Of a stretch of DNA of 64,000 nucleotides, positions 31,629-35,992 are shown piece after piece. Source of the stretch: Alphaproteobacteria bacterium (GTDB lineage: Bacteria; Pseudomonadota; Alphaproteobacteria; UBA828); contig CBDCQT010000010.1 in NCBI GenBank assembly GCA_965220745.1, forward strand, positions 128,001 to 192,000, given 5' to 3'. The stretch's first letter is position 1. Every line of letters starts with the position of its first letter. The notes under the pieces were generated by a model. It was not told the origin of the DNA. It saw only the letters and a list, made by a program, of their open reading frames with translations, and made no database searches. A program made the position numbers and the translations under genes.

Positions 31629-33180
31629 TGCGGGGGGCTGTCCGAGCCCCTTTTGCGCTCTCTTTATCTTGACTAACTAACTGATTCGATGATAGGATTC
31701 TGCCATGGAACCGAGCCCCGGCACGGTCGATCTCGCGTCGCTTGCACCGCCCCTGCGGGCGCTGTTCGCAGGCCAGCAAGCGGCTCTCGAGACGCTGCGC
31801 GCCGAGAACGCGGCGCTGAGCGATCGCAACCGCCGTCTCGAAGAGCAAGGCCCGGAGGGGATTGTCGAGGACCTGCGCAGCCGCGTGGCCTCGCTCACCG
31901 AGCAGAACCGGCGCCTCGAACATCTGCTCAACGAGTTGCGCCGGGCGATGTTCGGCAAGAAGTCCGAGAAGCTCCATCCCGACCAGCTCCTGCTCGCCTT
32001 CGAGGAACTCGAAGGCGCTCTCGCCGAGGCCGAGGAAGAGGCCCCGTCGAGCACGGAGCGAACACCGCGCGCGAAGCGCCCCGCCGCGGAACGCAACATC
32101 GGCGATCTTCCGGCCCACCTGCCGCGCTCCTATAGGCTGGTCGAGCCCGAGAGCACGCAGTGCCCGTGCGGTTGCGGCGAGATGACCAAGATCGGCGAGG
32201 ACCGCACCGAGCGGCTGGACATCATTCCGGCGCAGCTTCTGGTCATCGTCACCATCCGGCCGAAGTACGCCTGCCGCGCGTGCGAGGAGGGCGTCACCCA
32301 GGCGCCGGCGCCGGGGCACCTTGTCGAGGGCGGTCTGCCCACCGAGGGCATGCTCGCCCACGTGCTGGTGTCGAAGTTCGCCGACCACCTTCCTCTATAC
32401 CGTCAGTCGCAGATCTACGCCCGCTCGGGGATCGAGCTGCACCGCTCGACGCTGGCCGACTGGGTCGGCAAGGCGTCGTTCCACTTGCGGCCCGTGTTCG
32501 ACTGCCTGAAGGGAGAGTTGAAGACGTCGAGCAACCTCGGCCTGGACGAGACCACGGTTCGGGTTCTCGACCCGGGCCGGGGCAAGACCAAGACCGGCTA
32601 CATGTGGACGATGACGCGCGACGGGCGGGGCTGGTCCGGGGCCGATCCGCCGGGCGTGGTCTATGAGTATGCGCCCGGCCGCAGCGGCAAGCATGGCGAG
32701 GACCTTCTCGAGGGCTTCAAGGGGACGGTACAGGTCGACGGCTATTCCGGTCACAACCGGCTGCGCCGGCCGGACCGGCCGGGTGGGGCGCTGACGCTGG
32801 CGGCATGCTGGACCCACGCGAGGCGCGGCTTGAAGGAGGTGTTCGACAGCAACGCCTCGCCGATCGCGGCGGAGGGTCTGAAGCGGATCGCGCAGCTCTA
32901 CAAGATCGAGGACAAGATCCGGGGCAAGCCGCCGGCGACGCGCCAGTTCGTCCGGTGGACCGAGTCGGCGCCGCTGGTGAACGCCTTCGGCGTGTGGCTC
33001 GACGAGCAGCGCTCGCGCGTCTCACCGCGCTCGCGCTTGGGCGAGAAGCTCACCTACATCGCCAACCAGTGGGATGGGCTGCTGGTGTTCCTGTACGACG
33101 GGCGCGTCGAGATGGACACCAACGCCATCGAGAACCCCATCCGCCCGATCAAGACGATGGAGTCATTCTGCACCCCTTGT

Positions 33181-35265
33181 TCAAGTGTCTGAAAACATTG
33201 ACATCTGTTCCCGGCAAGAGGATCGATGCGGATGTCGTCTCCTCCTGTTGGCCAAGGCTTGGGCGACGTTCTCGGTATGAAGGTCTGCAACCTTGATCTG
33301 CCAGGGCGCTCCGGGAACGACCTGCCGGGCGGGCAACTCTCCCATCTTGATGAGACGTCGGATGACGTGACTGGTGACGCCGAGCTCCTTCGCGGCTTCG
33401 AACATGGTGCACCAAATGCCGTCCCTGTAGGCGGGGAAATGAGCGTGAATGCCGTTCACGCGGCGGATCGAGCTGACCCGTTTGGCCGTCCAGGTCTTGT
33501 CCTGGCCGGTGCGCATGCCCATCCGGTTGAGCGACGCGGCGATATGATCGTCGGACCATCGTCCCGCCATGTTCCGCATGACCGCCAGGGCCTCATCGGA
33601 TGTCCTGCTTCCGTGCTCGCCACTCTTCGGCTTGCGAACCCTTAGCTGTGAGTGTTGGCCGCCGCGCCAATGAATCGTCAGGACGACTTCGCGGGCCTCG
33701 TCGTCGACATTGGCGACGATGTCGATGATCAATGTGCGCACGAGTCTCTGGCGTGCGCGCATGCTCACACCGGGTGCATTCCAGGCGGCTTTCAGGTCGT
33801 GGGCGAGGCCGGCCAAGTCCGGGCTAACGGCTTGAGGGTCTGGCGAGTGCATCGCTTCCAGTCGCTCCTGGCACGCCTGCACGCGCTGCAGCGCGGTCTC
33901 CCAACTCTTCTCCAGTTCGGCGGCGATCAGCCGGTTGTCGGGGTCGCAGGCGGCATAACGCCGCTCGGCGAGCGATGCTTCGTAGCGAGCTTGTTGCAGA
34001 TCGAGTTCGGCCACGTGCTGTCGTTCCCGCAGACTTTCCTCACGTGTGCGCTCGGCCTCCAGCGACGCCTCCAGCGCCATGGGCTCCACGACACGGAGGA
34101 TCTCCGCGGCAATAGCCTCATCCACCCGCGCGCCGCCAAATCCCAAACAACGCTTGAGGCCGAGATGAAGGTTCGGTCGGTCGCAACGGTAACGTGGGCG
34201 GCCGGGTCGCCCCCCGACATAGGCGACCGCCAAGCCACGGCCGCATCGACCGCACGTGAGGAGACCGCTGAGCAATGCTCGCCCGCCGCGTCCCGACTTC
34301 CTGCCCCCTGACTTGCTGTAGCTGTTTGCGGCGAGCTGTGTCTGGTTGCGCTCGAACTCCGCCCAGTCGATGTAGCCCTCGTGATGGTTCTTCAACAGAA
34401 CCTCCCACTCCTCCATCGGCTTGGCATGACCGTATGTCTTCCGCACGTACCCATTGATGATCTCGGTCCGACTCTCGTTCTTTCCATACGCGTAGACGCC
34501 GGCGTAAAAGGGATTCTTCAGCACCGAGATCACGTTGCCGTAGCGGATCGGCGTCCAATCGAACGAAACCATTGTGCTGCCATCCGACGGGCGGGGGAAG
34601 CAGAGTTGTTCCGCGGTCAGCGCCAGGAGCACCTGTCGTGCGCTGGCCAGATCGCGAAACCGCGCGAAGATCAGGCGGACCGTCTCCTGGACGCGCTTGT
34701 CGGGGTCAAGCCCCAATCCAGTGTCGCGATCCCAGACGTACCCGACGGGTACACCGATCCGGAGTTCGCCGCGCGCTGCTTTGGACGACCGGGCATCGTG
34801 CATCCGGGCGCGTAGCACACCGAGTTCGAACTCGCTGATTGTTCCCTTCATGCCGAGCAGCAAACGATCGTTGGGACGGCGCGGATCGTAGACGCCGTCA
34901 TGGTCGATGACGCGCGCGCCGACAAGACCACACAGCTCGAGAATATGGTGCCAATCTCGACCATTCCGAGCGACCCGAGACGCCTCGAAACAAAGCACTG
35001 CACCGACGTCGCCGGCACACAGCCACGCGACCAGGCGCTCGAACCCGGGTCGCGCCACCGCGCCACCGGCCGACAAGCCGAGATCCTCATCGATGATCTC
35101 GACGGCGCCGAACCCGTGGTCACGCGCGATGTCCACGAGATCGTACTGAAGGCGCTGGCTCTCAAGGTTGCCGCGGACCTGGGCAGGCGTGGATTGGCGG
35201 ACATAGACCACCGCCTTGCGGGACAGTACCGACCCCGGCAGGGAATCAGACGCGCGCATCGTCAT
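33181..35265 (-). CDS. Large serine recombinase
   Basis: VVYVRQST, DEDLGLSA, RPGF, EASRVARN; CGRCG...YRC...C zinc ribbon; coiled coil; C-terminal HTH. Confidence 0.93.
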   Translation of the reverse strand: MTMRASDSLPGSVLSRKAVVYVRQSTPAQVRGNLESQRLQYDLVDIARDHGFGAVEIIDEDLGLSAGGAVARPGFERLVAWLCAGDVGAVLCFEASRVARNGRDWHHILELCGLVGARVIDHDGVYDPRRPNDRLLLGMKGTISEFELGVLRARMHDARSSKAARGELRIGVPVGYVWDRDTGLGLDPDKRVQETVRLIFARFRDLASARQVLLALTAEQLCFPRPSDGSTMVSFDWTPIRYGNVISVLKNPFYAGVYAYGKNESRTEIINGYVRKTYGHAKPMEEWEVLLKNHHEGYIDWAEFERNQTQLAANSYSKSGGRKSGRGGRALLSGLLTCGRCGRGLAVAYVGGRPGRPRYRCDRPNLHLGLKRCLGFGGARVDEAIAAEILRVVEPMALEASLEAERTREESLRERQHVAELDLQQARYEASLAERRYAACDPDNRLIAAELEKSWETALQRVQACQERLEAMHSPDPQAVSPDLAGLAHDLKAAWNAPGVSMRARQRLVRTLIIDIVANVDDEAREVVLTIHWRGGQHSQLRVRKPKSGEHGSRTSDEALAVMRNMAGRWSDDHIAASLNRMGMRTGQDKTWTAKRVSSIRRVNGIHAHFPAYRDGIWCTMFEAAKELGVTSHVIRRLIKMGELPARQVVPGAPWQIKVADLHTENVAQALANRRRRHPHRSSCREQMSMFSDT

Positions 35266-35431
35266 CCTCCCGTTCCAGGATGCCCGTGGCTTCCAGCAGC
35301 ACTCCGGCCAGCGCGCCGAGCACTTCGCCCCGTTCGCTCGGGCTCAGCCCCCGCAGCTTCGGGGCGTCCAGCGCCATGCTCAACTGGCGAGGTTCGACAG
35401 GTGGAAGCTGTAGCGTCGACACAGACTTCAT
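35246..35431 (-). CDS. Small 61-aa accessory protein upstream of the recombinase
   Basis: SD GAGGAG + ATG 35431; MKSVSTLQLPPVEPRQLSMALD... Confidence 0.6.
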   Translation of the reverse strand: MKSVSTLQLPPVEPRQLSMALDAPKLRGLSPSERGEVLGALAGVLLEATGILEREDDDARV

Positions 35432-35747
35432 CGCGAATCTCCTCGATGACGGGATGGTCATCACAGGAGCTTGCTCTGAAGCCTTGCGTAACGAGAAGCT
35501 CATGGAGTTCGCCAAGAGCGGCAAGAGACGCCCGAGGCTCACCGAGCTCCATTCCGATGCAGGCCGCCGGATCGAGCATCCAGACGGCAACCTTTATGAC
35601 TACACCCGGCTGTAGCTCGAGCAGGGCGAGTGAGCCATCGGCTCGATGCTCGACGCGCTCAAGGCGGAGACGGCGGCCGAAATGGGCGTGCCACGGGTAA
35701 TGGACGACGCAATCCTGCCCGACATGGGCAGAATGAACGGATGATGA
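35262..35747 (-). CDS. Junction-spanning ORF whose N-terminal 56 codons lack a start in the integrated state
   Basis: Open frame SSSVHSAHVGQDCVVHYPWHAHFG...WMLDPAAC; closed upstream by TGA 35753-35751; in frame with ATG 33166 after circularisation. Confidence 0.7.
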   Translation of the reverse strand, partial: SSSVHSAHVGQDCVVHYPWHAHFGRRLRLERVEHRADGSLALLELQPGVVIKVAVWMLDPAACIGMELGEPRASLAALGELHELLVTQGFRASSCDDHPVIEEIRDEVCVDATASTCRTSPVEHGAGRPEAAGAEPERTGRSARRAGRSAAGSHGHPGTGG

Positions 35748-35992
35748 AGCTCACGAAGAAAAACGCGCTGTTCGCCGGCAGCGATGACGGCGCCACGACC
35801 TGGGCGCGATGCGCCAGCCTGATCGGCACCTGCAAGCTCAACGGCGTCAATCCGCAGGTCTACCTGACCGACACCCTGCGCCGGATCGTCGACATGCACC
35901 CCGTGTCACGCATCGATGACCTGATGCCCTGGAACTTCACCCCGACAATCCCGAGCGTCACACGTCAACAAGGGTGACCGCGCGGCGCTTAC

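Follow-up and report, generated by a model that had tools for sequence, protein, structure and literature searches.

An open reading frame crossed by the attachment site of an IS66-targeting large serine recombinase element

The window analyzed here is a stretch of 64,000 nucleotides (nt) from an Alphaproteobacteria bacterium (UBA828 lineage; GenBank assembly GCA_965220745.1, contig CBDCQT010000010.1, positions 128,001 to 192,000 of the forward strand), and positions are counted from its first letter. It carries a mobile element of the large serine recombinase (LSR) type, which sits inside tnpC of an IS66 copy and contains three genes, ORF1, ORF2, and the LSR gene, with next to no non-coding DNA. 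The attachment (att) site of the element lies inside an open reading frame (ORF) of its own, ORF1, which at the sequence level is intact only in the circle. The comparisons described below show that ORF1 is a conserved gene interrupted by the att site and whole only across the joined ends. We consider it rather probable that ORF1 is a real conserved gene crossed by the element's own att site, and that its product serves as a cofactor of the LSR in the circle state. The features concerned are as follows.

33151..35748, minus strand: whole mobile element, 2,596 bp with one copy of the crossover dinucleotide counted
33151..33166, minus strand: 5' piece of ORF1 (ATG, four codons, and one base); integrated reading MTPSS, then TGA
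33171..33178, minus strand: Shine-Dalgarno (SD)-like sequence AAGGGGTG, serving the right-end ATG
33181..35265, minus strand: LSR gene, 694 amino acids, with resolvase, recombinase, and zinc-ribbon domains
35246..35431, minus strand: ORF2, 61 amino acids, in the +1 frame within the ORF1 tail; its stop is 17 nt inside the LSR gene
35262..35747, minus strand: ORF1 body, 161 codons and a stop overlapping the LSR ATG
35463..35720, minus strand: conserved domain of ORF1 (body residues ~10-95), a predicted small beta barrel followed by helices

ORF1 is interrupted by the attachment site and whole only across the joined ends

On the minus strand, the LSR gene terminates with TGA at 33183-33181, upstream of the right-end ATG at 33166-33164. 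This ATG is followed by ACT CCA TCG TCT and then by TGA (33151-33149), and the final two bases of the stop of this integrated five-residue peptide (33150-33149) come from IS66. At the left end, a frame free of stops extends from 35747 down to 35264-35262, where it terminates, and upstream it is closed by a TGA at 35753-35751 in the IS66 flank. The earliest ATG, GTG, or TTG in the left-end frame is located at 35579, corresponding to body codon 57. A virtual junction of the two ends joins both pieces into an ORF of 166 codons. The LSR gene itself (33181-35265) is uninterrupted, and the split gene is not the integrase. An earlier note on this DNA had placed the LSR stop, the SD-like AAGGGGTG, the ATG at 33166, the MTPSS peptide, and both TGA codons at positions that all agree with the sequence, and the 166-residue protein that it had derived from the joined ends is reproduced. 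The core shared by the two ends, which it had taken as a 7-bp site with one mismatch, is really the 2-bp TT, the neighboring bases being unrelated.

The ends of the element were set from the points where 80 related loci lose their likeness, together with the repeated flanking dinucleotide. These loci are the best 80 (66-82% identity) of 468 LSR relatives found in a scan of one genome per species. Counts over them are not independent, as single-linkage clustering of the 74 unique sequences yields 22 clusters at 70% domain identity and seven at 60%. Many relatives lie on contigs of 2.55-2.62 kilobases, which is the element length, and many genomes have several copies, judging from element-length contigs and repeated loci. 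In the relatives, the right end runs from the LSR stop through 13-16 nt with a purine/G-rich block to the ATG, with the dinucleotide 14 nt farther on. The left end consists of the dinucleotide, 11 nt, and CATTCTGCCCATGTCGGGCAGG, and is found in 79 of the 80 loci. The same dinucleotide occurs at both junctions in 61 of the 72 loci with both ends readable. It is mostly GC, and AC, CA, AG, GG, GT, CC, and TT (in the window) are also found. Since identical flanking dinucleotides are the signature of conservative exchange at a 2-bp crossover, the ends are fixed to the base; such an exchange is one of the hallmarks of LSRs. The features of the two ends are as follows.

33151..33152, minus strand: right crossover dinucleotide TT, at ATG+14/+15
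35747..35748, minus strand: left crossover dinucleotide TT, 11 nt upstream of CATTCTG
33163..33171, minus strand: right arm GCAGAATGA of the terminal inverted repeat, matching the left arm as its reverse complement; contains the ORF1 ATG
35728..35736, minus strand: left arm TCATTCTGC of the terminal inverted repeat, read as the H-S-A codons in ORF1
35715..35731, minus strand: small palindrome CTGCCC-ATGTC-GGGCAG in the left arm, conserved in the sequence logo

The inverted repeat is 9-12 nt long, and both arms are positioned 10 nt from the crossover. The left arm is near-invariant at all three codon positions (entropies of 0.27/0.25/0.31), which points to constraint on the DNA itself. Variants of the palindrome (L029, L031, L033, L034, and L020) lack compensating changes, suggesting that it is a DNA site rather than an RNA hairpin.

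The start site of ORF1 is well conserved. An ATG is present at the conserved right-end position in 77 of the 78 readable right ends, the exception being L010 with ATA; L015, whose contig ends too early, and L074 and L079, with no recognizable right end, were left out. An SD sequence (a match of at least 4 nt to AGGAGGT with a spacing of 4-10) precedes this ATG in 55 of 72 loci, and the logo displays a conserved purine/G-rich block at positions -12 to -7, of which positions -12 to -8 are outside the inverted repeat. In a Burkholderia/Paraburkholderia subgroup, the LSR gene runs on to a TGA that overlaps the ORF1 ATG; a stop overlapping the next ATG is the usual arrangement of coupled genes. The distance from the ATG to CATTCTG in the virtual circle is 27 nt, and hence in frame. 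The resulting circle ORF is 163-178 amino acids long in 73 of 75 cases, the remaining two (L063 and L064) being broken copies. Within the 60-nt virtual junction, a stop interrupts the ATG frame in one of the 72 loci, whereas the other two frames are interrupted in 69 and 20. Judging from these counts, the openness of the ATG frame across the junction exceeds chance.

The same layout is found in a second subfamily (L134, L135, L144, which is partial, and L130, which is degenerate), whose LSRs are ~40% identical to that in the window. The right end there consists of the LSR stop, 13 nt, an ATG, and ~17 conserved bases before unrelated flank. The opposite end has an ORF1-like frame (..ELLYPWHPW..) that lacks an ATG and is open from the left end onward, and the copies differ by 3-nt indels only. 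The frame is continuous in the virtual circle under either crossover placement considered. Two distant relatives (L131 and L133) have an SD and an ATG after the LSR stop, and their ends could not be defined. The family is also represented in 210 plasmid records and is common on rhizobial plasmids.

The positions of potential start codons in the integrated copies should be noted, since ORF1 might instead be made while the element is integrated, either from variable non-ATG starts at about codons 13-15 or from starts in the IS66 flank, with the ATG and purine block of the right end conserved merely as an LSR binding site or as the end of the LSR gene. In line with such an explanation, the ATG lies in the inverted repeat GCAGAATGA/TCATTCTGC, whose spacing is fixed, and bona fide genes of the family DUF5372, with which ORF1 is compared below, begin only 2-4 residues before their FHPL motif. 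Some in-frame ATG, GTG, or TTG is found between the upstream stop and codon 16 in 43 of the 80 integrated left ends, and 27 of the 80 copies have one in codons 1-15 within the element. However, no such start is conserved, and the window has none before codon 57. Starts before codon 16 that are backed by an SD match of at least 4 nt occur in only eight of the 80 copies, with four inside the element and none in the window. An in-frame ATG before codon 16 is present in 12 of the 80. In five of these (L006, L049, L063, L064, and L072), the ATG is supplied by the flank six codons before the left end, with no SD match of at least 4 nt; it may be antisense to the TnpC codons for K-S-W in IS66. This flank-supplied ATG was taken as the start by gene callers in several database proteins (P0006, P0009, P0019, P0021, and P0025). 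Moreover, positions -12 to -8 of the purine block are conserved though they lie outside the inverted repeat, the ATG frame alone is open over the junction in nearly all loci, and the LSR stop overlaps the ATG in one subgroup. Synthesis of ORF1 from the integrated copy, the chief alternative as to mechanism, thus appears rather improbable. A start at codons 13-15, considered after the analogy of DUF5372, was rejected, as it is found in a minority of copies and not in the window.

Joined ends were sought as DNA with the end-motif pattern. In metagenome contigs, the pattern gave 17 matches, of which two (L086 and L096) are real head-to-tail junctions and 15 are chance matches; in viral contigs, it gave none. 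L086 contains a 3' remnant of the LSR gene, the junction, an uninterrupted ORF1 of 167 codons from its ATG, ORF2, and the LSR start, with an IS1182-like transposase gene upstream. In L096, the C-terminal part of the LSR is followed by the junction and the first ~100 codons of ORF1, and then by an IS3-type insertion. The joined form therefore exists as DNA, and, as both contigs bear an IS insertion in the element, assembly of joined forms may be confined largely to disabled elements.

At the 3' end of the LSR gene, the codons for ..NQL.MF.DT (33184-33201, minus strand) are conserved as DNA (AATGTTT.CAGA.ACTTGA), both T of CTTGA being present in all 75 of 75 right ends. The right-end sequence TTTTCA-19 nt-CAGAAT could be a weak outward-facing promoter as judged by eye, and the consensus scan finds none there. 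A terminator-like hairpin followed by CGTTTTTCTT (35766-35783, minus strand) is located in the IS66 flank just upstream of the left end. In this copy, the hairpin could block read-through into the element.

Coding signature and predicted fold of ORF1

When each of the six frames of 35262-35760 was searched against the 80 loci by tblastn, the ORF1 frame ranked at the top (192/163/154 bits), with matches in all 80. A codon alignment of the 74 unique sequences was used to calculate entropies at the three codon positions and the ratio of nonsynonymous to synonymous differences (pN/pS). For codons 12-55, all of which are before the first ATG, the entropies are 0.89/0.73/1.55, and the pN/pS of 0.47 is below that of any other frame. 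For codons 56-95, the corresponding values are 0.90/0.82/1.39 and 0.53. Codons 5-11 (HSAHVGQ) hardly vary at any of the three positions and coincide with the inverted repeat and the palindrome, suggesting a constraint at the DNA level. The consensus of the conserved protein is HSAHvGqeveVhYRWHpl.Grrvr....E.Ra.G..vhVe..pGvV...aaWMLDp..CagM...G.PRv...AL..Lh.LL, and A7, Tyr17, Trp56, Cys63, Gly69, and Leu78 are invariant.

The AlphaFold2 model of ORF1, built with a 63-row alignment, has block values of the predicted local distance difference test (pLDDT) of 83-95 for residues 11-90 and of 93-95 for residues 11-60. Four strands (residues 12-15, 26-35, 38-46, and 49-54) are followed by three helices (55-58, 60-64, and 75-87). 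Since the strands precede codon 57, Met57 is predicted to be a residue within the domain and not its start. The ATG at 35579 was accordingly rejected as the true start of ORF1; it falls between the conserved Trp56 and Leu58, in the middle of the domain of the predicted fold. A Foldseek search of ORF1 against the PDB gave no match with an E-value (E) of 0.001 or less; only weak matches with SH3-like, Tudor, KOW, and PsaE barrels were obtained (E 0.1-0.8). Searches of Pfam, NCBIfam, and PHROGs found nothing credible for ORF1 or ORF2. Matches with Raffinose_syn, obtained for 32 of 63 family members, cover a short stretch of a model of 750 positions and were treated as spurious (12.9 bits for the window protein versus a cut-off of 20).

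These data also bear on the view that the left-end region is untranslated, its conservation being due to an att site, a promoter, or an RNA element, and its open frame to the high G+C content. Codons 5-11 are indeed equally conserved at all codon positions, and all six frames give tblastn matches, the DNA itself being conserved. Contrarily, codons 12-55 display the variation with a period of three and the low pN/pS given above, the second subfamily has only 3-nt indels, these very residues build a confident predicted fold, and the complex model described below reaches a score of 0.65, compared with 0.00 for the controls. A codon-aligned frame on the opposite strand has two stops in the window. 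An untranslated left end is very improbable in the light of these observations. A codon-aligned gene on the plus strand was rejected as well, because of its two stops in the window, its lower tblastn score, and a pN/pS above 1.

ORF2 lies within the ORF1 tail and has an SD of the GGAGG type (GAGGAG at 35439-35444). The SD, the ATG, and the motif RQLS..FD..L.G.S..ER..V..LA.LL.EA...E.DDD with its acidic C-terminus are kept in 77 of the 80 left-end sequences. ORF2 is 57-72 amino acids long in 74 of the 77 called sequences; the outlying calls of 114 (L077 and L078) and 54 amino acids (L025) are likely to be wrong picks of the start. In the Sinorhizobium meliloti plasmid pSmeRU11d, a coding sequence of 59 amino acids is annotated at the position of ORF2, while ORF1 is unannotated. 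Through the entire overlap with ORF2, as far as the LSR start, the ORF1 frame contains no stop in any of the 70 unique loci, while the third frame is open in none of the 70. If the ORF2 codons are resampled synonymously, open ORF1 tail frames are expected in 16.7 of the 70 loci (~24% each); L077, L006, L063, and L064 were left out of this test. The offset between the ORF1 stop and the LSR start ranges from -5 to +17 nt, so that the two overlap or abut. The ORF1 tail was rejected as a functional protein segment, having entropies of 1.36/1.23/1.05 and being predicted to be disordered; its frame is kept open nonetheless.

With these results, the switch interpretation put forward in the earlier note is supported as far as comparative sequence data go. 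None of the three refuting conditions that it had named was found: in the homologs circularized in silico, the frame across attP is conserved (open in 71 of 72 loci), no internal start is conserved before the HY(P/R)WH motif, and the region upstream of Met 35579 is coding, providing the beta strands of the domain. Its 166-residue product stands in part, since residues ~10-95 are conserved but the last ~65 are not and overlap ORF2. A head-to-tail junction was found in the two metagenome contigs but not for this copy. The presence of ORF2 within the ORF1 tail and the double role of the ATG as part of the inverted repeat go beyond that note.

ORF1 is probably a distant relative of DUF5372 (PF17342), not a member of it. 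In the ESM Atlas, all 30 of the 30 matches of the ORF1 domain are DUF5372 (0.92-0.93 for three of them). An hhalign comparison of ORF1 with six DUF5372 sequences gave an E of 9.4e-5 and a probability of 58.8 over 41 columns, with YRWHPLYGRR aligned to HPFHPLHGRE. In Pfam, the window protein has no PF17342 match above the gathering score, and two of 63 family members match (best E, 0.034). A search of the genome with PF17342 did not report the window locus, though it reported another locus in the same genome. The two families are alike in their motifs (FHPLxGR in DUF5372 and WHPLYGRR in ORF1) and in their position upstream of an LSR gene. They differ in that each DUF5372 gene inspected is provided with a GTG of its own or preceded by an open frame, and in that a helix-turn-helix (HTH) gene is placed between DUF5372 and the LSR gene. 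A literature search, with supplementary files outside its scope, found no paper mentioning DUF5372.

A second LSR module in the same genome (contig C12:221082-224312, L101) consists of a DUF5372 gene (E 1.7e-20), a homeodomain-like HTH gene, and an LSR gene, and similar loci are L102, L106, and L108. L101 and L102 agree over about 50 nt upstream of the module start, and this stretch contains GTGCACCCC, the reverse complement of a portion of the right-end motif in the element of the window. A DUF5372-HTH-LSR element in genome G191 occurs in three copies within a larger repeat, so that its ends are not settable.

Predicted binding to the recombinase and the proposed role in the circle

The LSR matches Resolvase (PF00239, E 3.5e-22), Recombinase (PF07508, E 3.3e-18), and Zn_ribbon_recom (PF13408, E 1.6e-7), all above the Pfam cut-offs. 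In its AlphaFold2 model, zinc-ribbon strands (residues 336-377) and coiled-coil helices (379-439 and 445-473) have block pLDDT values of 83-93. The protein thus has the catalytic, recombinase, and zinc-ribbon domains of the family and, in the model, the coiled-coil hairpin. Its C-terminal part (residues 618-676; 33187-33393, minus strand) resembles an excisionase/MerR-like HTH, matching HTH_17 (E 2.5e-5) and TIGR01764 (E 8.5e-5), both below the cut-offs. A C-terminal excisionase-like HTH is unusual for serine integrases.

A complex of the LSR with residues 1-96 of ORF1 was modeled. The score is 0.65, compared with 0.00 for the best of three controls. This mark is reached by 58 of 80 solved complexes and by two of 110 mismatched pairs, and this calibration holds roughly because own alignments were used for the model. 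The runs share at least 78% of contacts, with a pLDDT of the partner of at least 74. The modeled contacts are formed by residues 337-343, 388-404, and 482-540 of the LSR and residues 19-22, 51-53, and 66-91 of ORF1. These predictions support docking of the ORF1 domain at the junction of the zinc ribbon and the coiled coil. In the passages of PMC11795197 that concern them, known recombination directionality factors (RDFs) are placed at this same junction.

Integration parts the start of ORF1 (the ribosome site, the ATG, and four codons) from its body, the domain beginning ~10 codons inside the left end. The whole ORF1 frame is then found only on head-to-tail DNA, that is, in the excised circle (attP) or in a tandem copy. 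According to the mechanism that we propose, translation of ORF1 in that state would start from the tail of the LSR mRNA or be coupled to it. Ribosomes on ORF1 would be delivered to the LSR start, and in the circle termination on the LSR gene would in turn lead into the ORF1 start, so that ORF1, ORF2, and the LSR gene would form a closed ring of translationally coupled genes. In the integrated copy, the LSR would be made with ORF2 alone, giving the excision mode, and ORF1 may set the LSR for integration by attP x attB or stop the excision mode. If the LSR is always accompanied by ORF1 in a non-replicating circle, whose only possible reaction is integration, then ORF1 should permit or favor attP x attB. 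A wider proposal, in which each state of the element encodes exactly the cofactors for its next reaction and circle-only ORF1 docks on the LSR and licenses integration, is offered as a tentative one.

The chief alternative as to function is that ORF1 acts as a classical RDF that is made only from circles, drives the excision of other integrated copies by positive feedback, and delays re-integration. The predicted contact at the hot spot of RDFs would agree with this, as would the probable distant kinship to DUF5372, whose genes lie upstream of other LSR genes, and the presence of several element copies in many genomes. However, a non-replicating circle that makes an inhibitor of integration together with every LSR molecule would tend to be lost, and the first excision would need a factor from another source. 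The small ORF2, with a strong SD of its own and an overlap with the LSR start, is a candidate excision factor of at least equal standing. Known RDFs come from the integrated prophage and drive excision, whereas ORF1 can be complete only after excision, and ORF1 has no sequence or fold match to a known RDF (none with E of 0.001 or less in Foldseek). We regard a classical RDF as unlikely.

Several observations weigh against the proposed circle-state cofactor. The related loci are related to each other, and the counts overstate their independence. The ATG is within the inverted repeat and the crossover distances are set by att geometry, so that DNA recognition would partly explain the conservation of the ATG and the frame; judging from the alignments, this fixed geometry leaves the open frame, the ribosome site, and the coding signature unexplained. 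With the in-element starts in codons 1-15 (27/80) and the in-frame ATGs before codon 16 (12/80, including the five in the flank), some copies could make ORF1 while integrated. L086 and L096 also carry insertion sequences (ISs) and may be tandem copies rather than circles. A joint of a circle or an empty site was not seen for this copy in four runs (X1-X4), which are contigs from one sample that bridge both integrated junctions and as contigs cannot show rare forms. A joint from 34870 to 35818, whose shorter side spans only 21 letters and which has 7 foreign letters inserted, was rejected as probably belonging to another organism or a repeat. A scan of the integrated element sequence with a sigma-70-like consensus gave no site. 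Translation of ORF1 from the circle is something that we infer, and the direction of its effect follows from argument, so that by likeness to RDFs it could be the opposite.

The proposed switch can be compared with several known systems. Insertion sequence circles of the IS911, IS30, IS256, and IS110/IS1111 types have junction promoters, with the -35 and -10 elements split between the two ends. There, as here, expression is gated by the joined ends of a small transposable element, but the recombinases are DDE or DEDD transposases and the split unit is a promoter, in contrast to an LSR and a split coding frame. In Tn4451/Tn4453 (TnpX), a promoter is reportedly formed by the circular intermediate (Lyras and Rood, 2000, as the title has it). 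That element is likewise moved by an LSR, with its expression changed by the joining of the ends in the circle; a promoter is assembled there, whereas what is put together here is a reading frame complete with ribosome site and start codon. In the SSV-type ("suicidal") integrases of archaeal viruses and plasmids, as outlined in the passages of PMC7253208 on this type, the att site is in the integrase's own gene, which is whole only in the circle. The likeness, as far as those passages go, is that the recombination site is within the element's own ORF and integration cuts a gene in two. The split gene of SSV is that of a tyrosine integrase; in the present element, the recombinase is intact, a small accessory protein of a bacterial LSR element is split, and only the start codon and four codons are parted from the rest. 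Pcirc of ICEclc and P3'end of ICEKp1 lie at the far end and drive a near-end gene only after excision has joined the ends, according to the parts of PMC13023037 that deal with them. They switch the transcription of tyrosine integrase genes in large conjugative elements, whereas the switch here would act on the reading frame of a cofactor gene. A literature search, again leaving supplementary files aside, found no description of the element or of this arrangement. The split gene of an accessory protein, the assembly of a frame, and the predicted binding at the hot spot set the present case apart from these precedents.

Large serine integrases are widely used tools for genome engineering, and the control of their directionality is an active question. 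If the proposal is true, a cofactor gene present only at attP would be a new and economical link between LSR directionality and the state of the DNA. ORF1 would then qualify as an "integration directionality factor," the reverse of an RDF, carried by a widespread element that preys on IS66 transposase genes, and would offer a new family of LSR-binding proteins to test. ORF1 is invisible to gene callers because it has no start in the integrated form. Only 29 database proteins of the ORF1 family were found, compared with 468 relatives among genome representatives. This scarcity of annotated ORF1 proteins suggests that att-spanning genes may be missed more generally.

The IS66 target and the neighboring sequence

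The target of the element is an IS66-family copy, having TnpA, TnpB, and TnpC with the IS66 DDE domain. Its parts are as follows.

30760-31278: IS66 tnpA
31275-31628: IS66 tnpB
31705..33150, plus strand: N-terminal part of the interrupted IS66 tnpC (Pfam DDE_Tnp_IS66, E 2e-89; zf-IS66; LZ_Tnp_IS66)
35749..35977, plus strand: C-terminal part of IS66 tnpC (Pfam DDE_Tnp_IS66_C, E 1.2e-19)

A flank resembling IS66 TnpC adjoins an end in 61 of 79 related loci, at the motif ..ERxxRPI/..GRKNWLF.. (the slash marking the junction). IS66 flank is found on both sides in the same antisense orientation as in the window at 39 loci, and in the opposite orientation at ~3. Judging from these flanks, the family is a site-specific parasite of IS66-family transposase genes, themselves part of another mobile element. 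In the same genome, a second copy of the element or of this IS66 was not found, and hence no empty site. A fragment of an IS1595 (ISXO2-like) transposase (35958-36110, minus strand; Pfam E 1.9e-10) abuts the end of the IS66 copy. The locus may thus be a nest, with the LSR element within IS66 and IS66 itself next to or inside an IS1595 remnant.

Two small paralogous ORFs (37238-37489 and 37938-38258, both on the plus strand) have signal-peptide-like N-termini and conserved Cys/Trp patterns. They lie in a stretch that is richer in AT by eye, and no Pfam family matched them. A further ORF (38852-39055, minus strand), which gave no Pfam match with E of 0.01 or less, resembles a C-terminal fragment of a tyrosine integrase (..LLGHRRPSMTMRYAHVGDRE..) and also resembles the ORF beside the DUF5372 module in L101.

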